From IMG/VR virus record IMGVR_UViG_2778261251_000022: a stretch of 13,585 nt of DNA; one strand, written 5' to 3'. This DNA comes from a virus (lineage: Duplodnaviria > Heunggongvirae > Uroviricota > Caudoviricetes). The notes under the pieces were generated by a model. The model made no database searches. It was not told the origin of the DNA and was given only the letters and a program-made list of their open reading frames with translations. Below, piece after piece: positions 1 through 13,585 of the stretch (within the stretch, counting starts at the first letter, position 1; every line of letters starts with the position of its first letter). A program made the position numbers and the translations under genes.

Positions 1-291
1 TTATCTGGTGTGGTCGTAGTTCTGCCGTAGTCGTTCACCCTCAGCGCAATGACGCGGTTTTTTAACGCCGCTGGTAACGCAACGCGGGCAGGTCATGACG
101 TGGCTGATATACGCATCACGGGCAGCCAGCCACGTCGCTGACGGGGCGCACATATCCGCCAGCGCCTGGCCGTTGCTGGTGGTGTTGTCTTCCGGCCATG
201 TTTCGGGCTGGTGCGCTTCCGGTAAATCCGGTGCAGGTAATGCCCGGATAAACTCACACAATGCATCCGGCAGGCTGAATAACTTATGCAT
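1..291 (-). pseudogene. 96-aa ORF resembling an internal segment of the helicase at 991..2829; probable remnant or duplicated fragment
   Basis: Protein ...CEFIRAL...SNGQALADMC... parallels helicase ...PEFVRWL...SNGQTLADMY.... DNA 151..180 matches 1531..1560 at 29 of 30 nt, then diverges with an indel. TAA stop at 1..3 comes far earlier than in the helicase. Start at 291 (cat at 289..291 on plus). Confidence 0.35.
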
Positions 292-715
292 AAATCTGAT
301 GTTCTGAATCGCTGAAAACGTGCGTTTTATGGCGTTTTTTCGTGATTTCTGCGTGTTCTGATGTGCTCATTTCGCTGTATCCCTTGTGTGGCGCGGGCTG
401 CGCGTGTGTTTCGGTGTTCTTTTTTACCGCCAGAAAACGGTAATCAGGCATATAAACACGGCTGTAAGCCGCGCCGCGTCTGGCTTCGCGTGATTTTGTG
501 CGTCAAAAAGTGCATTTTTGCCCTTAAAAAGCGTTATTCGTAATTCACTGGTAAATGCTCCGCAGGCCGCGCCATTGCTGGCCTTTTCGCTATTCTGTGT
601 GGTTTTGCTGTTTAACCCGTTTTGCACACTAAAATTGCCTTGCATCCCGCGCCACGTAAGGGATTGCCGGGTTTTTATGTTGCGTTTTTTGCCGTGCGTA
701 ATATTGTGCAAGTTG

Positions 716-957
716 GTGGGACTGGTGGGAACTGTGGGAACCGCCTAGAACCACGCGGCTTTCAGTGGTTCCCACCAGTTCCCACGTTGGCTTTTTGTGG
801 GAACCGTGGCGGTTATTTTTTGTTCTTTGCGGTTCCCACCAGTTCCCGCAGAGTTCCCACTCAAAAACGAACAATAATCATACTGATGGTTTTATTATTT
901 ACTGATTTATATATGTTTTATTTTTACGGTTCCCACAGTTCCCACCAGTCCCACCAC
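716..957. repeat. Iteron cluster: about 12 copies of octamer GTTCCCAC/GTGGGAAC in both orientations around an AT-rich core (861..927); probable replication origin (P4 ori/crr-like)
   Basis: Copies read directly at 716-722, 725-732, 734-741, 797-804 (GTGGGAAC orientation) and 768-775, 778-785, 832-839, 842-849 (variant), 853-860, 929-936, 938-945, 948-954 (GTTCCCAC orientation). Lies immediately downstream of the helicase gene. Confidence 0.7.
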
Positions 958-990
958 TTTTTCAGTTTTTAAAAACGCAATTTTTGTGAA

Positions 991-2829
991 TTATTCATCA
1001 ATTGCGAATAACAATGCATTCTGGCCGATGGCGTAAACGCGGTGTTTCTCCCCGTTAACGGAAACGCGTTTTGTGTATCGGCGTTTCCCGTCCGTGTCGC
1101 GGTCAACAATCGCGCCAGCATCGTCAAGACTGGCCGCTATGCGTTTCAGGTCGTAGCCGCTGGCCGCCTCACATAGTGCTTCCGGTAAAAACCAGTAAAC
1201 CCGCTCGCCGTTGCTCCCCGGTCGCCACCATCCGGCGCGGGTGCTTACTGGTTCGCTGTATGTGCTGCCCCCTTCAAAGCGTGAAGCATGGCGGGCGATA
1301 AACCCCGCGACGGCCCGGAGTATTTTCACGTCCTCCGATTGCCCCCGCCCACGATAGTCCGCCCACGCATCAAACATCGCTTTCACTGCCTCCAGTGCTT
1401 CGCCCTGTTTCCACGGCAGAATCCCGGCAGTTATCGCCATTTCCCCGGCCAGTGCGCACAGTGTGAAACGCGCGGCGGCGCGTGCCTCCTGTCCGGTGCT
1501 TACGGGGAATTGTTCGCGCAGTATGGCGTACATATCCGCCAGCGTCTGGCCGTTGCTGTCGGTGCTGGTGGTGTCACTTTCATTGCGGGAAATCAGCCAG
1601 CGCACAAACTCCGGCCCGGCGTGGCCGTAATGGGTAGCCGCATTACCGCGCAGTGTTTCGGCAAATTTCCGGCCTGCTCCCCGGCGTTCTGTGTCGTTGT
1701 CGGGGTTGTGGGGTAGTGCCATTCCGTGAAGACAGTCAAATGCCCCGTAAAGCCGCTGTGCCGGAATATCCAGTAACCGCATTTCCTGCCCGGCCTTGAT
1801 GCGCTGGCCGCCGCTTTCCATGTGTTTACCCACGGTCATTTCCCCGGTGGAAATAATCATGGTGCGCCATGTGTTGACCGGGCGGGCCATGCCGGACACC
1901 TTGCCACGCTGACGGCCTGTTCCGTTGCCAAGCTGATAAATCAGCCCGCCAATATCTCTGGCCGGGGCTTCGCCAATTTCATCCAGTATCAGCGCGGTAT
2001 CGTTCCGCATGGTTGCCAGCCCTTCAAGCCCGGTGCTGGTGGCGTTCCAGTTGCGTTTAAAGTTGCGGGGTTCTCCCCATACGCTACAGGCCACCAGCGC
2101 CCCCACGCTTTTCCCGCTGGAACTGTCGCCCATGAAATGAAATCCGCCGCTGTCCACATCAAGCAACCACAGCAACGGCCCGGCGAGCGATGCACACACG
2201 GCCAGCATGGTTACCGGGTTTCCCCGGCATAATGCGGCCACGTTGTCGCGCCAGCCCTCCGGCGTTCCTGCGGTGGCGTACTCCTGTGAGCCTGCTTCTG
2301 TTGACTGAAACACCACATCACCATCACCGATAACCCCGCCCGGCATGACAAACAGGGCCGGGGAGTGCCACCCGGTGGCCGTGGCCGCGAGCGCCCGGCG
2401 TTTTGGTGCTGACTCCATGATGTATTCAGTCAGTGCCTGCCGTTGTTTGTAGGGAATGGTAACGCCCATGCGTAGCAGTTCCTGCCGGAGTTCTCCGCCG
2501 TCTCCGGCGAGCATTTCCATCGGTGCGGCCCATTCCCGCCACTGGCCTGACGGCGTGAGAAAACGGAGTAATCGCCCGTAGTTTTCGTCTTTGCTGTCGC
2601 TGGTCATGGCGATGACCTCCAGCGGGGAACATATAAACGTGTCTGTGTTGGTTGAGTCGCGCACGCCGTGCCAGTAAAGGCCGGGTTTCAGTATCTGGCC
2701 GCCGTCCACCTGTACATGCTGCGAATAAGTGGCGTAGCCCGGACGCGCCGGGCTGACTTTGGGGTGTTTCTTGCGTGGTGGTTTTCTCTTCCCGGATGTG
2801 ACCGGGGTTTTAGTGGTTGTCCGGGTCAT
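991..2829 (-). CDS. Replicative helicase / P-loop NTPase (P4 alpha C-terminal-like, D5/DUF927-type)
   Basis: 612-aa ORF. Walker A GDSSSGKS and Walker B ALILDEIGE visible in the translation. Sits directly downstream of the primase, overlapping its 3' end by 20 nt. ATG at 2829. Confidence 0.8.
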   Translation of the reverse strand: MTRTTTKTPVTSGKRKPPRKKHPKVSPARPGYATYSQHVQVDGGQILKPGLYWHGVRDSTNTDTFICSPLEVIAMTSDSKDENYGRLLRFLTPSGQWREWAAPMEMLAGDGGELRQELLRMGVTIPYKQRQALTEYIMESAPKRRALAATATGWHSPALFVMPGGVIGDGDVVFQSTEAGSQEYATAGTPEGWRDNVAALCRGNPVTMLAVCASLAGPLLWLLDVDSGGFHFMGDSSSGKSVGALVACSVWGEPRNFKRNWNATSTGLEGLATMRNDTALILDEIGEAPARDIGGLIYQLGNGTGRQRGKVSGMARPVNTWRTMIISTGEMTVGKHMESGGQRIKAGQEMRLLDIPAQRLYGAFDCLHGMALPHNPDNDTERRGAGRKFAETLRGNAATHYGHAGPEFVRWLISRNESDTTSTDSNGQTLADMYAILREQFPVSTGQEARAAARFTLCALAGEMAITAGILPWKQGEALEAVKAMFDAWADYRGRGQSEDVKILRAVAGFIARHASRFEGGSTYSEPVSTRAGWWRPGSNGERVYWFLPEALCEAASGYDLKRIAASLDDAGAIVDRDTDGKRRYTKRVSVNGEKHRVYAIGQNALLFAIDE

Positions 2830-4639: not shown

Positions 4640-5065
4640 TCTGGCAGCCTCCTTTTGCAAATTTAAGGAGTCACCGCCTGAGTTCCTACACTCATAAGGG
4701 GCGGTGACGCTGGCAGGGGTAGGAATACCGGCGCAAAAGGAAACCGGCCAGCCTTTCGGCTGCCCCACCAGCGCCACCATAGATACAGTGCGGGTCTTGC
4801 CGCTGTGCATGGGTGCGCGATGGCACGACACAAAAAAAGACGCTGGGCGCGTCTGTGTCGCCTTTTGCTCATTAAACGGGTTCCTACGCCCGGCTGGTGG
4901 ATTTACACCAGCGGGGGAAATATAACGCCCACCAGCGATGGCAGGCAAGCAATATTTGCGGTTGCCGCCCATCCCGTGGGGCGTGTGGTGGTTGTTTTGG
5001 GCGTGAGAACGCCCCGGCCCTGTTACGGGCCTTTCTGGCATTTTCATAATGATTATCGCGGTTGG
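4640..5065 (-). promoter_or_regulatory. Structured leader / promoter region between the alpA-like gene and the small-gene/primase operon (candidate immunity or regulatory RNA region)
   Basis: About 425 bp without a convincing ORF. Several stem-loops: GTCACCGCC(4672-4680)/GGCGGTGAC(4702-4710); GCTGGTG...CACCAGC near 4890-4915; GGGCGT-gaga-ACGCCC near 5002-5017. Plus the terminator at 4827..4859. Confidence 0.4.
4827..4859 (-). terminator. Intrinsic-terminator-like hairpin followed by a T7 run on the minus strand
   Basis: Minus strand reads AGACGC-GCCCA-GCGTCT then TTTTTTT (plus 4832..4854). Lies within the alpA to small-gene intergenic leader. Confidence 0.45.
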
Positions 5066-6333: not shown

Positions 6334-7608
6334 TTATTCACCAACCACTTTTAAGCCACGAAAACCGCCAGTTGCACTAAGGCTTCCGGTTGCTGCCTGT
6401 TCGATAAAATCACCCCACCACGCCATCAGTGGGCGGCGTTGCTCCAGATATGTGGAGCGATTGTAAGCCCGTCTCACCGTGTCCTTATCCAGATGGGAAA
6501 GCGCAGCCTCTATTACATCTGGCGGGAACCCCTGTTCATTAAGCGCCGTACTTGCTACAGAGCGTAAACCATGCGCCACCAGCTTTCCGGTATACCCCAT
6601 GCGCCTGATAGCGGCGTTTGCGGTCTGTTGATGCATCCCACGCATGGGGTCGCTGTTATGTGGAAAAACAAACTTTCGATGCCCGCTGATTGGGCGCATG
6701 GCTTCAAGAATGGCCATTGCCTGATTATTCAGGGGGACAATGTGCTCCCTTCGTTGTTTTAGTCGCCCGGCTGATATACGCCACACTCTGGCATCTGCAT
6801 CTATCTCGCTCCACTGTGCCCCGGCTGCCTCGCATGGGCGGCAAATAGTTAATAATTGCCATTCAATAACAAGACGCGTTTGAAGTTCTGCGCGAGCCGT
6901 TGCCAGTTTTTGCATAAATTCCGGCAACTCATCAGGCCTGATTGTTGGCATGTGTTTAACTACAGGTGGGTTGAATGCCTTGCTGATTTGAGCGGCGGGA
7001 TTAGCTGGAATTAATCCAATATTCACTGCGTAATACATAACCTCATTGATTCTTTGTGCCAGCCGTCGCACCGTATCCGCTTTGCCCTGTGCTGATACAG
7101 GTTTCAGGGCTTCGATAAAATCCCGTGCAACCAGTTCTGTGATTGGGCGATGGCCTATGGGTGGCAGCACATGACGCTCAAGAGAACGCCATATATCACG
7201 GAGTGTATTTGCCGCCAGATTCTGGCCGCGCTTTACTTCAAACCATTCTTCGGCCACGCGCTGAAATGTGTTTAATCGCCGTATTTCATCATCCCGGCGT
7301 TGTTTTTCCCTGTGTTCTTTGGGGTCAGTTCCATTTGCGACCAGTGAGCGATACTCGTCTTTAATCCTGCGAGCATCGGCAATGCTGATTTCGGGATATG
7401 CACCAAGGCTTAACATTGCCCGTTTTTTGGTGTGTGGCTTGTAGTACCGGAACCGCCATAAGGCTGATGCGCTACCCGCTTTCACAACTAACTCCAGCCC
7501 ATCGCCATCCGTGATAAATAAATCCTTCTCGGCGGTGAGCGATTTCTTCTGCAAACTTTTAATCGTCGCTGGTGTAAGTAATTTTGTGTTTTTGGCCACT
7601 GGTTGCAT
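6334..7608 (-). CDS. int: Tyrosine site-specific integrase (P4-type, with N-terminal arm-binding domain)
   Basis: 424 aa. N-terminal WRFRYY motif. C-terminal catalytic signature AHGLRSV...LSHLDKDTVRRAYNRSTY (R, H-x-x-R, H, Y). 5' end faces the tRNA fragment. Confidence 0.9.
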   Translation of the reverse strand: MQPVAKNTKLLTPATIKSLQKKSLTAEKDLFITDGDGLELVVKAGSASALWRFRYYKPHTKKRAMLSLGAYPEISIADARRIKDEYRSLVANGTDPKEHREKQRRDDEIRRLNTFQRVAEEWFEVKRGQNLAANTLRDIWRSLERHVLPPIGHRPITELVARDFIEALKPVSAQGKADTVRRLAQRINEVMYYAVNIGLIPANPAAQISKAFNPPVVKHMPTIRPDELPEFMQKLATARAELQTRLVIEWQLLTICRPCEAAGAQWSEIDADARVWRISAGRLKQRREHIVPLNNQAMAILEAMRPISGHRKFVFPHNSDPMRGMHQQTANAAIRRMGYTGKLVAHGLRSVASTALNEQGFPPDVIEAALSHLDKDTVRRAYNRSTYLEQRRPLMAWWGDFIEQAATGSLSATGGFRGLKVVGE

Positions 7609-7719: not shown

Positions 7720-7755
7720 AAAAAACCCGCAAGCCTTGTGTGGCGCGGGTTTCGT
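7720..7755 (-). terminator. Intrinsic-terminator-like hairpin with T6 run on the minus strand, downstream of the tRNA fragment
   Basis: Minus strand: CCCGCGCC-acacaa-GGCTTGCGGG followed by TTTTTT. Located about 45 nt 3' of the tRNA CCA end. Confidence 0.5.
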
Positions 7756-7796: not shown

Positions 7797-7843
7797 TGGT
7801 GGCCCCTGCTGGACTTGAACCAGCGACCAAGCGATTATGAGTC
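7797..7843 (-). tRNA. Partial tRNA: 3' 47 nt only (anticodon loop CUCAUAA with anticodon CAU, variable loop, T-arm, acceptor 3' strand, CCA); probable att core/direct repeat, not a functional gene
   Basis: Minus strand reads ACTCATAATCGCTTGGTCGCTGGTTCAAGTCCAGCAGGGGCCACCA: T-stem GCTGG/CCAGC with loop TTCAAGT, acceptor GGGGCC plus ACCA. The 5' half (acceptor 5' strand, D-arm, 5' anticodon stem) is absent, as upstream is ...gcctcatg. From memory it matches the 3' part of enterobacterial tRNA-Ile2 (ileX/ileY type); this is unverified. Confidence 0.8.
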
Positions 7844-7967
7844 ATGAGGCAAGTTCGTTCTATATTGTTTTTGTTTGTTCGTAATTGCTTTATTAGTTGT
7901 TTATAATCAATGAATTATGTAATTTTCTCTGTCTCCGCTTGGTTCCGTTTTTTCTTCATTGTACGAT

Positions 7968-7992
7968 CGTTACCTGACCCATTACCTGACCC
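7968..7992 (+). repeat. Tandem direct repeat TTACCTGACCC x2 upstream of integrase 2 (possible arm-type or regulatory site)
   Basis: cgTTACCTGACCCaTTACCTGACCCaaaatc read directly; copies at 7970-7980 and 7982-7992. Confidence 0.4.
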
Positions 7993-8039
7993 AAAATCAC
8001 GAGTTATTCTGATTGTTACTGGTTTAGAAAAGAGGTTCT

Positions 8040-9356
8040 ATGGCCGTCAATCTTACTGAAACAGCCATCCGAGCATTGAAAGCAAAAAAGACATCGTTCT
8101 ATGTCTGGAGCAACAGCTCTCAACGTGGCACTGGACGACTTGGTGTCAAAGTTCAGTCTTCTGGCAGCAAGATTTTCTATTTCCGCTATTACGTGGAAAA
8201 AGGGAAAAAAGAAAGATTCATTCAATTGGGTATATGGCCTGAGATGAAACTGGCCACAGCGAATGAACTGGCAAAAAAGTATGGTGCCTGGCTCATTGAA
8301 GGAAAGGATCCCCAGGCAGAACTGGAACGACAACAGTTTGCAGAACAGCAGCGGATACAACTCCATCAATCACAGGGCTCATTTGAAGCATTGATTCATG
8401 GTTATGTTAACAAAATGAAAATTGATAATAAGAGGACATGGCAGGATGTTCTGAAACGCCTTGAAAATGAATGCTATACAGTGATCCCCCGTGAAACTAA
8501 AGCTAAAGATGTGACTTCCGGACAGATTAAACATATCCTGGCCGGGATCATTCAGCGTGGTGCTGTGGTTCACTCTAACCGGATCCGTTCTTACCTGATG
8601 GCTGCATTTAACTATGGACTGAAAGCAGATAACGATCCGATGAACACAAGTGCAGGGATTACTTTTGGGCTGGAGGCAAATCCGGTGTCAGTGATACCGA
8701 AACAGTCATCTGCTGAAAAAGTCGGTGATACCTGGCTGACACTTGAAGAGTTGCGTTTTCTAATGGAACATTTTGCTGAAGCAACCAACGTTGGATTATT
8801 GATGCAACATTTGATCCGATTCTGTATCTATACCGGAGGGCAACGTCCCTTCGAAATGATCGCCAGTCAGTGGTGTGATGTTGATTTTCAACAAAAAACG
8901 CTGCTGGTGACTGCTGATGTCTCTAAAAATAAACGAGAGCATTTGATACCGTTGACTGAATCAGCATTACAGGAATTATCCTGTGTGCAGGAGTTAACAA
9001 AAGAAAAATCCAGCCCTTACATTTTTCCACTTTCGACTAATGGTAAGCGTCCGGTTCGTACGGACAGTCTGGCTCGCGCTATCATGTATTTCCGGGCTTT
9101 TAATCCTGACTTTAAAATTTTTACAGCACGTGACTTACGTCGGACCTGTAAAACGTTAATGGGAGAAGCTGGGATCAGTAAGGAAATCCGCGATCGTATT
9201 CAAAATCATGCGTTGAACGATGTCAGTTCAAAACATTATGATCGATACGATTATTTGCCAGAAAAACGCAGAGCACTTGAGATCTGGGAGGACCGGGTTA
9301 ATAACTATCAACAGCAAACAGGCAATAATGTTGTCAATCTGTTTGGCAGAAGGTGA
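8040..9356 (+). CDS. int: Tyrosine site-specific integrase (second, distinct from the one at 6334..7608)
   Basis: 438 aa. AAGAGG RBS 5 nt upstream of ATG. N-terminal FYFRYY arm-binding-type motif. C-terminal RDLRRT...IQNHALNDVSSKHYDRYDY (R, H, Y catalytic residues). Confidence 0.88.
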   Translation: MAVNLTETAIRALKAKKTSFYVWSNSSQRGTGRLGVKVQSSGSKIFYFRYYVEKGKKERFIQLGIWPEMKLATANELAKKYGAWLIEGKDPQAELERQQFAEQQRIQLHQSQGSFEALIHGYVNKMKIDNKRTWQDVLKRLENECYTVIPRETKAKDVTSGQIKHILAGIIQRGAVVHSNRIRSYLMAAFNYGLKADNDPMNTSAGITFGLEANPVSVIPKQSSAEKVGDTWLTLEELRFLMEHFAEATNVGLLMQHLIRFCIYTGGQRPFEMIASQWCDVDFQQKTLLVTADVSKNKREHLIPLTESALQELSCVQELTKEKSSPYIFPLSTNGKRPVRTDSLARAIMYFRAFNPDFKIFTARDLRRTCKTLMGEAGISKEIRDRIQNHALNDVSSKHYDRYDYLPEKRRALEIWEDRVNNYQQQTGNNVVNLFGRR

Positions 9357-9455
9357 GGGAGTTCCTGGTCGCTGTACGAATTGTGTACAATCGATGGGTA
9401 TTGTTGATGCACTTGGTTCTTGTATTGTTTACTATAATTATTGAGGTAAATTTTC

Positions 9456-10082
9456 GTGCCGGTATTACTCAGAGGGGATTCAAAAATGGCTGTAATTCCA
9501 ATGTCTTACTCCCCTGCTACTGTAGCTCGTCGTTTTTCGATACTGGATGGAGTAACTATTCAGGGCGTGCTTTACCAGATCATCTGGGATCCAAAGACTC
9601 CGTTTGCTGCGGTAATCGAAGCTGCACCTTCTGTTATTGATGGTGATGTTCGCCATAAGGTTGTTGCCACTCTGGAGCTTCAGCGTCGTCCCCGGCTTGA
9701 AGGCGTGTTTGTCCAGAAATTCTGGGAAGAACAGGATGTTGCTCAGATTGAAGGGATTGTTGTCGATGGCGCTGTACGTGATGTTGGTCTTGCAACGTTT
9801 GTTTATGAAACGATAGTCACAAAAGCGGGCGTTGTACTATTAAGTGATAACGAGCAATATGAAGGAGGTAAAGCTCTCTGGCAGCATATTGCGCGTCGTT
9901 CAACGAATCTGAAGGTGTTTATTTTAGATACTGATTCCGCACGGTATTACCCGTTTGATGGCGAACGGATCAGTTATGACGGGAAAAGCATCCCGGAATC
10001 AGAAATCTGGAGTGAACATCCTGAGCGAAACAGACACGCTGTCGTTCTTGTGGCTGAATCTGTTAATGGTAAAGCCGCATAA
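9456..10082 (+). CDS. Hypothetical protein (about 198-208 aa)
   Basis: ORF downstream of integrase 2. Two candidate starts: GTG 9456 (GAGGT 8 nt upstream) or ATG 9486 (GAGGGG 7 nt upstream). Followed by a hairpin terminator. No confident motif. Confidence 0.6.
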   Translation: MPVLLRGDSKMAVIPMSYSPATVARRFSILDGVTIQGVLYQIIWDPKTPFAAVIEAAPSVIDGDVRHKVVATLELQRRPRLEGVFVQKFWEEQDVAQIEGIVVDGAVRDVGLATFVYETIVTKAGVVLLSDNEQYEGGKALWQHIARRSTNLKVFILDTDSARYYPFDGERISYDGKSIPESEIWSEHPERNRHAVVLVAESVNGKAA

Positions 10083-10129
10083 TTTGCCGAGTGTCTCGTT
10101 TTTTGAGATCTTGCTGGAAAGTCTCCCTT

Positions 10130-10158
10130 GGGGATAGCGAACTGCTATCCCCTTTCTC
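10130..10158 (+). terminator. Hairpin terminator between convergent genes
   Basis: GGGGATAGC-GAACT-GCTATCCCC followed by TTTCTC on the plus strand. Sits between the stop of the plus-strand ORF (10082) and the stop of the minus-strand ORF (10165). Confidence 0.55.
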
Positions 10159-10164
10159 AGTGAG

Positions 10165-11769
10165 TTACTGTTCGACCAGACATTTTCCCCATAAAGGTCG
10201 TATCGAGTATCTATCTTCGCTATATGGATTTATTTTATTTTTTTCCCTCTGTGCTATCAGCAACGTGTCGATCTCATCCTTAATAATGTGTTGAACTGTT
10301 TGACGGTAACGGTTAAGCGAAGTGTCACTGATATCTTGTGGAAGTTGTAGACTGCCATCTGCCTTGACGAGTTCATTCACACCATCTTTAATTTTGCGTC
10401 CCTGACCATCAGGTATACCTTCATTCAGATCATAGCCTTTCAGTCCTGCAAGACGAATATTCACGTCAATCTTTTCTGTACGTTTCTTTTTGTTACTTAC
10501 CAACAGAATTTTATTGGCGTTATACCATTTTTCAAATGTTTCCAGTTGTTTCATGATGTTTGTGAAGTTATTCAGTTCGCTCCTGAATTCAATAGATTTT
10601 CTAATTTCACGCTCTTTTGCATCAATGTTTGTTCCTGGATAATTTATTTCCCTTTTTAACGGTTCTATGTATGCCTGTTGCAGGCAACCAGCAAGATTCA
10701 TTGCTGCATCCTGCAGGGTATTGGTATAAATCAGTTTCAGAAGTTCATCGCGCTGTATAGTGATTTGACAATAGTCTTTTTCCCATGCGGTGGTGTTTTC
10801 AATCGTGTCACTTTCATCGGAAATAATTGTTGTGAATTTCCAGGTGTAACGAATAAAATCATTTCCTTTAAAATATTGCACTAATTTATTTAACCATTCA
10901 TATATTTCCAGAGCATAAAGTTTAACGTATCCATCATATATTATCTTTGTTGCATTTTTGTTGGCTAGCGAAAACATTTTGTCCACGAATTCTGTACGCC
11001 CGATTGTTAGCAATTGTTTTCTAAGTTTACTCACATCGTTAGTATCTGGTTTCTCACAATTCCAGGGACTTTTGTATTCATTTTCAAAAGGAGAAAGCCA
11101 TTCAGGAATCTCTGTTTCTGAGTGATAGCAGTTGTTAATAGCCAAACCAAGGGTTCTGGCAAGTATCGCTGATTCATCAATTTGATGGTATCGGTTCAGT
11201 TGTTCCAGTAATTCTTTAGTACATGAGTGCGCAACAGAAAGATCCTGATGGCAATATCCTTGTCGAACCAGAGCGGGAAGTGGTGAGCAATGAGCTTTGC
11301 AATCTGTCAGAATATTGAACAAATCGTTTCTGACGAATTCTTCCATCTCAGGTGTTTTCCAGCCACCACTATTTTGGCCGACAAATTTTGCTGTTGGTTC
11401 CCTGTTCATATCTCCCCAGGTTTTCAGGCTGACGAGTCTGTTATCAAAACCATTGTATAAATGGCACATAACCTGAAAAGCAGCATACAGCTCTTTAGAT
11501 AGTGGATTATCGGTCTCACCTATGGAGTAGTCCTCTCTATTTTGCTCTAAAATATTTTGTAGTTTTGTGTTAGCGCGTAATGCCGAGAGAATCCGATGTT
11601 GTTCATCAAACCAGGGACGATATTCTGGATCCAGATACAATCTGCGTGCTTTGAAAATGAGTAGAAGCAACTGTTCGGAAACAGCTTCATGTATGTGGGG
11701 AAACGGCATGGAGGTGCCAGATAAAACACGATAGTACGGGTGGTTTGTTTTTACCTTTTTAGTTACCAT
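10165..11769 (-). CDS. Hypothetical protein (534 aa), AT-rich cargo gene of unknown function
   Basis: Long uninterrupted ORF in AT-rich DNA, which is statistically unlikely by chance. TAA stop at 10165..10167. Transcribed divergently from the AT-rich intergenic region it shares with the alpA-like gene. No canonical catalytic motif recognised. Confidence 0.75.
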   Translation of the reverse strand: MVTKKVKTNHPYYRVLSGTSMPFPHIHEAVSEQLLLLIFKARRLYLDPEYRPWFDEQHRILSALRANTKLQNILEQNREDYSIGETDNPLSKELYAAFQVMCHLYNGFDNRLVSLKTWGDMNREPTAKFVGQNSGGWKTPEMEEFVRNDLFNILTDCKAHCSPLPALVRQGYCHQDLSVAHSCTKELLEQLNRYHQIDESAILARTLGLAINNCYHSETEIPEWLSPFENEYKSPWNCEKPDTNDVSKLRKQLLTIGRTEFVDKMFSLANKNATKIIYDGYVKLYALEIYEWLNKLVQYFKGNDFIRYTWKFTTIISDESDTIENTTAWEKDYCQITIQRDELLKLIYTNTLQDAAMNLAGCLQQAYIEPLKREINYPGTNIDAKEREIRKSIEFRSELNNFTNIMKQLETFEKWYNANKILLVSNKKKRTEKIDVNIRLAGLKGYDLNEGIPDGQGRKIKDGVNELVKADGSLQLPQDISDTSLNRYRQTVQHIIKDEIDTLLIAQREKNKINPYSEDRYSIRPLWGKCLVEQ

Positions 11770-12548
11770 AATGTTAAATTCTTCCGTCTATTGCATAGCT
11801 GTTTCCAGTAGAGAAACTTGATACAGTCCTTTGTCAGGACATTGATACAGAGTTAACAGCCTCTACGAAATGGGAATCAGTTATGCAGTGGCATTATACG
11901 ATGCTGAATCTAATACGATATCCTTAGCGTTTATTCCTGATTTTTTTACGAGCATTCCCTTTTGTTGCATATTGCTCAGGACGTAAATGATTTTACGGTT
12001 ATAGCCCTCTACAGTCACGTCACTTTCATCTGAAAATATGTATCGTTTTCATTCAATTATTATCTTTTGTCTGCACTTTAGCTTTAGCAAGTTGGCAAAA
12101 ATCAACTCCCTCTTACAAGTTCTATTATCGCCAGAAGATAATTTTGTGAACTTCGTCACGTTTTCAAACTAATGTTGTGGGGGCTTTTCTGGGGAAAATT
12201 TTTGGTCACTACCCCTCCTCTTGATATCATAGATCATAACAAGATTTTTTTTGTTTTTGTCTGCATAAAATAACCTGCAAAGATTATGATTTTGGTTTTT
12301 ATTTTGTATATTAAAAAGTATTGTTTGAATTATTTTTATATTGTGACTTTCTTTGTTGTTATTGTGTTATTAGAAGTCAGTTAATTAAATCAATTCTCGC
12401 AATTTGATTTCTTGGTTGTGCAAATGTATTGTTTTGCTCGTGAGTTGCTGGTGCTGTTCAACAGCATACCACTACAGATAGATGTAGTGATTTGAGCAGC
12501 TCACATGCATATACAATCTGAAAATCATGAATGTATAAGGAGAGCAAT
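11770..12548. promoter_or_regulatory. Long AT-rich divergent intergenic region (probable divergent promoters for the 534-aa gene and the alpA-like gene)
   Basis: About 780 bp with no ORF of 60 aa or more. Very AT-rich with A/T tracts, typical of horizontally acquired promoter regions. Confidence 0.4.
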
Positions 12549-12776
12549 ATGTGGAAGCCGTTAAGAGATGAGAACCGTTTATCAATTTTGAAGATCTATG
12601 GATACACCTGTGACAGACTGGTACGAGAAGAGGAACGTCAGAACATTACGTCTATTTCTCGTTCACAAGCCTGGAAACTGGAACGTGAAGGAAAATTCCC
12701 GCCACGTAAAACTATTGGAAAGAAATCCTGTGGGTGGTTATTAAGTGATCTATTGTGGTGGATTAGTCAGTATTAA
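12549..12776 (+). CDS. AlpA-family-like small DNA-binding regulator (75 aa)
   Basis: ATG at 12549 preceded by AAGGAG (7-nt spacer); the upstream in-frame ATG at 12531 lacks an RBS. ...ITSISRSQAWKLEREGKFPPRKTIGKKSCGWLLSDLLWWI fits the AlpA-like HTH pattern. Confidence 0.6.
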   Translation: MWKPLRDENRLSILKIYGYTCDRLVREEERQNITSISRSQAWKLEREGKFPPRKTIGKKSCGWLLSDLLWWISQY

Positions 12777-12838
12777 CCTTATAGTATCAGAATAATATAT
12801 ATTTCTATATTTTAATTTTATAATTAAAAAGGAGTTTC

Positions 12839-13585
12839 ATGATGAAACGTGTCTCTTTCTCTCTTGCAGAAACATATGAAGCTGATGTAATTAAAAAGTA
12901 TCAGCATTTAAAAAAATGTTCATTTTCAGCAGCGATTAAAGAGTGTTTAAAGCTAGGGGCTCCTGTTTTAAACAGGATAAATGAAAATATTGCTGCTATA
13001 ACTGATATAGAGGATAAGCTACGTCAGTTTTTTAATGAGGAACCATTTGTGCAACGGACAAAGCCTGAAATAACAAAAGGAGAGTTTTTTCATAGCATTT
13101 ATAAATCGCATATCAAATATGAATATGATGTTCTCGATAGAAAGATATTTCCTCATGAAAGCACCAGAAATGCTATGGGAGTTGCAGAGAAAAAGGGAAT
13201 TAAAGAGAATGCGATCTTAATGCTGGAATATTATAAAGTTGAGAAGGCAATTTGTATTTACACGAACAGAAAAGTTTCCCATGCCCTGAATCGTGCAGGA
13301 GGGTTTTATAAAACCATTCTGATTAAAACCAGTGTTTTTGGGGATTATTTTTTTGACTTTTGCAATTCAGTTTGCCTGCCGATAGATGAATTGATTGAGT
13401 ATGGTACGAAAGAAACAGTGAGGCGACATCAGATTCGTAGTACAGGATTTTGTACTTTTCATATTCCGATTTTTTATATCAATAATAAGGCTGTAATAGT
13501 GCCTGTTCTGAGAACAGAGGAAGTTTCACAAAGTTCCAGAACAGGTGGAGATGTTATTATTATTAACCCATTTGAAGATGAATGA
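12839..13585 (+). CDS. Hypothetical protein (248 aa) with possible N-terminal ribbon-helix-helix fold
   Basis: Strong AAAAGGAG RBS. N-terminus KRVSFSLAETYEADVIKKYQHL...SFSAAIKECLKLG has a beta-strand/helix/helix pattern reminiscent of CopG/RHH. Stop codon is the last 3 nt of the window. Confidence 0.65.
   Translation: MMKRVSFSLAETYEADVIKKYQHLKKCSFSAAIKECLKLGAPVLNRINENIAAITDIEDKLRQFFNEEPFVQRTKPEITKGEFFHSIYKSHIKYEYDVLDRKIFPHESTRNAMGVAEKKGIKENAILMLEYYKVEKAICIYTNRKVSHALNRAGGFYKTILIKTSVFGDYFFDFCNSVCLPIDELIEYGTKETVRRHQIRSTGFCTFHIPIFYINNKAVIVPVLRTEEVSQSSRTGGDVIIINPFEDE

Follow-up and report, generated by a model that had tools for sequence, protein, structure and literature searches.

A short in-frame copy of a helicase gene segment in the linker of a small gene of a tRNA-integrated island

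The closest described systems to the element analyzed here are the Gram-negative PICIs and P4-like satellites, such as EcCICFT073 (PMC6092414, PMC6739421). These elements have a size of about 8 kb, are integrated at a tRNA gene, and encode a P4-type integrase, an HTH regulator, a primase and a helicase; their iteron origin follows the helicase gene, and their distal end contains small accessory genes. A C4-type antisense RNA together with isrK and an Icd/Ash gene is a further trait. All of these traits are shared by the island that occupies the left part of the DNA studied here, a stretch of 13,585 nucleotides that is referred to as the window. The island is a single 8.3-kb element integrated at tRNA-Ile, and it comprises an integrase gene, an HTH gene, C4 and isrK RNAs with an Icd/Ash gene, genes for a toprim primase and a DUF927 helicase, iterons, a leader ORF and the small gene ORF1. 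It differs from the named elements in that homologs of Rpp, capsid-remodelling proteins, Psu, Delta or Sid were not found, nor was a cos site. The features on which the following sections rely are these:

1..291, minus strand: ORF1, an intact 96-codon gene from ATG to TAA (RefSeq WP_000549241.1, "hypothetical protein"), the last gene of the island
145..185, minus strand: recipient copy of a repeated tract, in ORF1 (codons ~36-49, NTTS-NGQALADMCA), in frame, with a 9-nt deletion relative to the donor
284..370, minus strand: 29-codon upstream ORF, the TAA of which overlaps the ORF1 ATG (ATGCATAA), with AAGGGA 9 nt before its own ATG
421..426, minus strand: homopolymer run (T6 on the plus strand) of strain-variable length
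714..956, no strand assigned: origin-like iteron block with perfect 30-nt inverted arms (714-743 and 927-956), at least three GGTTCCCACCAGTTCCC repeats and an AT-rich centre
991..2829, minus strand: gene of a DUF927/Cch-like replicative helicase of 612 aa (Pfam DUF927 8.4e-83, weak HTH_56)
1525..1574, minus strand: donor copy of the repeated tract, in the helicase gene (DTTSTDSNGQTLADMYA), starting in the 9-nt repeat ACCACCAGC (Thr-Thr-Ser)

The island and its ends

Of 5426 complete E. coli genomes, 32 match the first 1 kb of the window with 95-100% identity. In the E. coli strain cq9, with 100% identity to window positions 1-1000, the island runs from tRNA-Ile to nfeF and ORF1 is its last gene. 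The sequence at the tRNA 3' end, TGGTGGCCCCTGCTG, occurs a second time 523 nt to the left of the window, where it lacks one C and directly follows the nfeF terminator; arm-type repeats GATATGCCTTnnTGTATGCCTA are located near both island ends. As empty-site test, a synthetic junction was made by fusing the nfeF terminator to the tRNA-Ile gene at the att core. It was found with 100% identity over 372 nt in one piece, and it is covered to at least 80% in 4955 of the 5426 E. coli genomes. This junction, together with the att core and the arm repeats, indicates that the island ends 523 nt left of the window, against nfeF. An earlier reading of the window, made from the letters alone (the sequence-only reading), had pointed to the region left of the window as a place for further P4-like genes or another element boundary. 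Neither a second element nor a further P4-like gene is present there; 523 nt of island are followed by the att core and nfeF. A 21-nt repeat (382-402 and 7733-7753) was also considered as an internal att site, which would have left ORF1 outside of the element, but this was rejected, as the true att core and arms lie elsewhere and the empty-site test fits those.

The helicase gene is preceded by a separate toprim primase gene. Besides its DUF927 domain, the helicase matches a PHROG termed "DNA primase" (2.5e-74). Its earlier designation as P4-like could not be upheld, as it is a DUF927/Cch-like protein with a separate toprim gene and not a fused protein of the P4 alpha type. The iteron block is situated just downstream of the helicase gene, between it and ORF1, and is conserved to ~78-82% in the Lelliottia and Citrobacter islands. 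The same gene order is seen in islands of Salmonella (L002), Lelliottia (L004) and Citrobacter (L005), in which the toprim and DUF927 genes are followed by an origin-like spacer of 700-800 nt and then by the ORF1 homolog. Two further E. coli islands (L007 1527-2580 and L009 1534-2590), with ORF1 versions that are 96-97% identical, are located at a different site by dinD and a tRNA gene; downstream of ORF1, they contain a fragment of ssb and genes for a PerC-family regulator and a Mor-family activator. Islands that have different ends therefore have the replication module in common.

Several observations concern other parts of the window. Rfam identified a C4 antisense RNA (79.6 bits, 4697-4784, minus strand) and isrK (60.7 bits, 4833-4912, minus strand), both of which sit within an ORF that is called Icd-like by PGAP and Ash by Pfam. 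This locus is a P1/P4-style antisense immunity module, and the 5' part of the Icd-like/Ash ORF may be RNA-coding rather than protein-coding. The island's integrase (6334-7608) is intact in the window, with 424 aa, and is annotated as a frameshifted pseudogene in cq9 (L001 21334-22598). From tRNA-Ile, the window contains only a 47-nt 3' piece (7797-7843), and no tRNA was found by ARAGORN. A second, larger island begins right of this piece (7844-13585) with an integrase gene at 8040-9356 on the plus strand; its ORFs of 534 aa and 248 aa gave no family matches, PADLOC included. E. coli HCP5S3_I2 likewise has the two islands in tandem, whereas cq9 possesses the first island only.

ORF1, its family and its upstream region

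The ORF1 protein begins with the motif LPDALCxFIRxL, which is followed by a variable linker and a C-terminal zinc-knuckle-like domain of the type H-x3-C-x2-C...C. A search of 5.8 billion proteins gave 17 relatives, of which the full-length ones have 96-113 aa and identities down to ~47%, and their hosts are Escherichia, Salmonella, Lelliottia, Enterobacter and Citrobacter. In the alignment of this family, the N-terminal motif is conserved, the Pro/Thr-rich linker varies, and the C-terminal block W-AARDAYISHVM-C-x2-CVTSG-x3-PRHC-x2-G-x2-LR is strongly conserved. The C-terminal domain is under purifying selection, with dN/dS of 0.15-0.28 at dS ~1-2, and the linker has values of 0.5-1.2. In an AlphaFold2 model, residues 50-96 form a helix, the knuckle and a second helix with block-mean pLDDT values of 82-95; residues 24-41 are below 50, and a short helix is predicted at residues 40-47, in the tract that is repeated in the helicase gene. 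Among the 32 E. coli genomes with the gene, 30 cover at least 80% of it. The sequence-only reading had described ORF1 as stopping early, but after the tract the frame stays open over another 48 codons, which lead into the most conserved domain of the family. Judged from this conservation, ORF1 is a functional and constrained small gene of its own family and not helicase debris.

The C-terminal domain is more widely distributed than the complete protein. A profile search of 1.84 billion representatives resulted in ~107 clusters of proteins of 60-270 aa with unrelated N-termini, one of the distant relatives being fused to a Rha domain, and H64, C68, C71 and C82 are invariant across the ORF1-type domains. 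A scan of genome contigs gave two loci only. A Pseudomonas relative is 49% identical to ORF1 in a stretch of 43 aa and has nothing in common with the helicase; its gene adjoins a P4-type integrase gene and a DUF927 fragment. This locus (L011 5364-9390, Pseudomonas sp. Irchel s3f7) is a decayed island that consists of the integrase, a DUF927 fragment of 123 aa and an ORF of 157 aa with the His/Cys domain, and it is followed by two S-type pyocin genes.

ORF1 itself had no family match in Pfam, NCBIfam, PHROGs or PADLOC. A search of PDB sequences with the family profile gave spurious weak matches only, none of them to an Rpp protein such as RppC, and Foldseek returned no structural neighbour. An identity with Rpp was considered and rejected, as ORF1 has 96 aa, Rpp proteins have 144-153 aa (PMC6739421), and no Rpp was matched among the PDB sequences. 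Our best guess is that ORF1 could be a zinc-binding regulatory or DNA-binding accessory protein that is usually paired with a Mor-family activator. This is suggested by the H-x3-C-x2-C...C ligands, by weak matches of a few distant relatives to zinc families, by the Rha fusion mentioned above, and by the fact that Mor-family genes and DUF927 islands are constant companions of the family.

No Shine-Dalgarno sequence precedes ORF1 itself. The 29-codon ORF at 370..284 and the overlap of its stop codon with the ORF1 start had been recognized correctly from the start, and this small ORF was found in five of five aligned islands; it probably is a leader for translational coupling to ORF1. In the Lelliottia and Citrobacter islands, a Mor-family gene is located directly upstream and its stop overlaps the start of the ORF1 homolog by 4 nt, and in a second Salmonella island (L006) such a gene ends 6 nt before the ORF1 homolog. 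These upstream genes match Pfam Mor with 28-36 bits. In the Salmonella island L002 and in the E. coli dinD-locus islands, the Mor-family gene is found downstream instead. The island of the window is devoid of a Mor-family gene, and a tblastn search revealed no Mor gene remnant at window positions 291-700 or left of the window.

Further upstream, the length of the homopolymer run at 421-426 determines whether the upstream ORF is read as 55 or 114 codons. Its variation shifts the frame between a low-complexity ORF of 95 codons (424-711, minus strand) and the leader ORF, and the "hypothetical proteins" called by PGAP around 421-711 differ between genomes. A block of 60 nt (460-519) retains 77-82% identity even in L004 and L006, the islands with the greatest divergence, in which the surroundings are unalignable; it could be a promoter/operator for the Mor/ORF1 unit, or a small RNA. 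A promoter scan of positions 1-1100 gave no sigma-70 consensus site, and Rfam gave nothing credible over the same range. A motif of ~21 nt, CCTTGTGTGGCGCGGG, occurs three times, at 379-401, inverted at 642-664, and at 7733-7753, where it forms a terminator-like hairpin after the tRNA piece.

A mosaic breakpoint was observed inside ORF1 when the window (1-75) was compared with Salmonella L002 (10228-10339), and the C-terminal tails of the two versions also differ. Over codons 1-50 there are 4 differences in 150 nt, whereas dS is ~1 over codons 51-96, and the nucleotide alignment stops near nt 227 (~codon 76). Recombination is frequent in these islands.

The tract shared with the helicase gene

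A repeat search of the window revealed a direct-orientation repeat between ORF1 and the helicase gene, with 88% identity over 43 nt (145-187 and 1525-1567). Its 28-nt core (151-178 and 1531-1558) has one mismatch (27/28), and the expectation for such a core by chance was 0.00 in 200 shuffles. If a single 9-nt gap is allowed, ORF1 145-185 aligns with helicase 1525-1574 with 39 of 41 aligned bases identical; the best ungapped score in 200 codon shuffles of ORF1 was at most 13, compared with 26 observed. The repeat had been reported before with 29 identities in 30 positions (151..180 and 1531..1560). It is real and not due to chance, but the number of identities is 27 of 30; the encoded peptides SNGQALADM and SNGQTLADM are as had been given. 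Outside of the tract, the ORF1 and helicase regions are unalignable with MAFFT and blastn-short, so the similarity comprises 41-50 nt and is abrupt at both edges. A BLASTP comparison of the two proteins gave only NTTSNGQALADMCA against STDSNGQTLADMYA (10/14), and in addition LPDALCE against LPEALCE, which lies elsewhere in the helicase and is at chance level. A short match without extended homology, which the sequence-only reading had equated with chance, is thus what was found, but chance is excluded and the tract was really copied.

The two copies are also found in related islands. The tract DNA of the Salmonella ORF1 ortholog, which encodes NTTSTDNNGQTLADMC, is identical to the window's helicase gene in 44 of 45 positions and represents the undeleted form, and in E. 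albertii the ORF1 tract matches its own helicase gene in 29 of 29 positions. The near-identity of the copies extends to synonymous third codon positions. Among the 5426 E. coli genomes, only the 32 that possess the island contain the tract sequence, at a median of two sites in each, and thus it is not a dispersed repeat.

The distribution of the tract reveals the direction of the copying. Within the ORF1 family, NGQ(T/A)LADM is found only in the sub-clade of E. coli, E. albertii and Salmonella, where it is part of the variable linker. The helicases of Lelliottia and Citrobacter are 85-86% identical to that of the window, and they, as well as the helicase of a metagenomic island (L012), keep GQTL(A/G)D(M/V)(F/Y) inside long conserved flanks; the ORF1 homologs of these three islands have unrelated Pro-rich linkers with no DNA match to the helicase. 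As the motif is present in helicases of islands whose ORF1 is tract-less, the helicase gene is the donor. In the window's helicase, the donor tract comes after the DUF927 match (aa 48-318) and ahead of the weak HTH_56 match (aa 503-601). We consider it very probable that ORF1 is an intact island gene with a one-off, in-frame, short-tract copy derived from the helicase gene. A recombination scar had been mentioned as a second option in the sequence-only reading, and this was essentially right, as ~45-50 nt of the helicase gene are found inside another gene.

The copying took place in the ancestor shared by the E. coli, E. albertii and Salmonella versions: ~45-50 nt of a low-complexity segment of the helicase gene, encoding (D)TTSTDSNGQTLADMY(A), were copied in frame into the ORF1 linker. 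We infer a single non-reciprocal short-tract transfer, by ectopic gene conversion or by replication template switching, between sites that are 1.38 kb apart in direct orientation. The E. coli lineage then lost one 9-nt unit, and the window copy gained a Thr-to-Ala exchange. The donor tract starts in a slippage-prone 9-nt repeat, the copy number of which differs between helicases that are 96% identical: Salmonella has four units and the window two degenerate ones (the compared sites are L002 8700-8740 and window 1554-1574). The 9 nt that are absent from the ORF1 copy of the window correspond to helicase 1554-1562 and represent one unit with AGCA repeats at its borders, in agreement with slippage. 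The change of QTL to QAL in the window is derived, as QTL is found in the remaining copies from E. coli, E. albertii and Salmonella. A possible GAC.ACC junction microhomology at the 5' edge of the tract is at most suggestive, and flanking homology that would explain a RecA-type conversion is not visible now.

The tract lies in a change-tolerant, fast-evolving segment that is modelled with low confidence, and most likely it is selectively neutral. The view that it is neutral is based on few variants, namely the 3-codon deletion and the form NSQTRADMR, to which the tract has drifted in FDAARGOS_943. Alternatively, the tract could be functional in ORF1, either as a linear motif that mimics the helicase or as a nucleic-acid site, such as an antisense-RNA target in both mRNAs. 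The retention of an in-frame copy in E. coli, E. albertii and Salmonella would agree with this, as would the short helix in the AlphaFold2 model, and a link to the replication module is conceivable as the ORF1-type domain accompanies DUF927 islands from Enterobacteria to Pseudomonas. However, the tract is absent from most of the family, in otherwise very similar islands; the linker does not co-vary with the helicase segment in Lelliottia, Citrobacter or L012; three codons were lost in E. coli and one strain shows decay; the linker dN/dS is high in comparison to the C-terminal domain, at the values given above; and Rfam gave no family matches at the tract. We therefore regard a function of the tract as improbable, and marginally more so the specific idea that, by mimicry of the helicase segment between the ATPase and the C-terminal domain, it lets ORF1 dock onto a helicase partner (the primase, or a host or helper factor), or compete for it, and in this way tunes island replication. 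With regard to co-variation, one family member (P0020) with the linker sequence SQTLPPMY had looked suggestive, but this candidate was rejected with the help of its relative on L012, in which the linker QSQPLSPMY stands against SDGQTLGDVF in the helicase, with no DNA match.

A transfer in the reverse direction, from the ORF1 linker to the helicase gene, is conceivable insofar as identity alone has no direction, but we consider it very unlikely, because the helicases of islands with a tract-less ORF1 contain the tract as well, and in them it is homologous over its full length and embedded in conserved helicase sequence. Still less probable is the main proposal of the sequence-only reading, according to which tandem or decayed elements left a second helicase gene of the P4-like or DUF927 kind, of which the ORF1 region is what remains. 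It could draw on the DNA and peptide shared with the helicase gene, on the decayed DUF927 fragments of the related islands L006 and L011, and on the existence of tandem islands at this tRNA, but the latter lie right of the window's first island, and on the left the empty-site junction puts the island end against nfeF. Moreover, the similarity covers no more than 41-50 nt and breaks off sharply on either side, ORF1 outside of the tract represents a conserved family of its own that is subject to purifying selection, and the ORF1 reading frame is neither disrupted nor unconstrained. The peptides CEFIRAL and PEFVRWL had been taken as a parallel extension of the homology, but the LPDALCxFIRxL motif is kept in family members that do not possess the helicase-like tract, and hhalign of a tract-less ORF1 profile against the helicases gave a probability of 0.4% and an E-value of 0.15, with no deeper homology; the parallel is therefore not homologous. 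Both regions are indeed Thr/Ser/Pro-rich linkers and CEFIRAL against PEFVRWL is at chance level, but chance similarity or convergence of two low-complexity segments can be dismissed as the least probable reading, since the DNA identities of 27/28 and 44/45 include third positions and none of the 200 shuffles came close.

Significance and comparison with known systems

The copying of the helicase segment is a known kind of event in an uncharacterised, otherwise ordinary island gene. For annotation it is relevant that a short internal repeat of this kind could mislead into the call of a pseudogene or a tandem element, where in fact one intact island and a real gene are present. The case also provides a clean and datable in-frame patch between unrelated neighbouring genes of a mobile element, in which the donor is identified, the undeleted intermediate survives in Salmonella, and decayed forms are found in E. 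coli. As a by-product, an uncharacterised family of small His/Cys domains could be defined that accompanies DUF927-helicase islands and, in most cases, a Mor-family activator gene, and that is possibly a useful target for research on satellite regulation.

With respect to its possible ligands, ORF1 resembles the Pfam families zf-HC2 (the zinc anti-sigma type) and Phage_zn_bind_8 in its H64-x3-C68-x2-C71 and C82 pattern and the predicted helix-knuckle-helix. Among 33 distant relatives, six match Phage_zn_bind_8 weakly (best E 4.5e-4) and two match zf-HC2; ORF1 itself differs in that it matches neither family at the gathering score of the Pfam models. The helicase resembles the MCM-like Cch/DUF927 helicases of staphylococcal SCCmec in its full DUF927 domain and a weak match to the Cch C-terminal HTH. 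It differs from them in its partial NCBIfam match to SCCmec Cch1, which reaches 75.6 bits against a cutoff of 700, in its enterobacterial lineage, and in the separate toprim primase gene.

The tract itself is most similar to the patches that are left by short-tract ectopic gene conversion or template switching. As in those, a few tens of bases were affected in a non-reciprocal manner at nearby sites in direct orientation on one replicon, the copies are nearly identical including synonymous sites, the edges are sharp, and the tract starts in a short tandem repeat. It is unlike classical gene conversion in that donor and recipient are otherwise unrelated genes without flanking homology, and in that the product is an in-frame chimeric linker.
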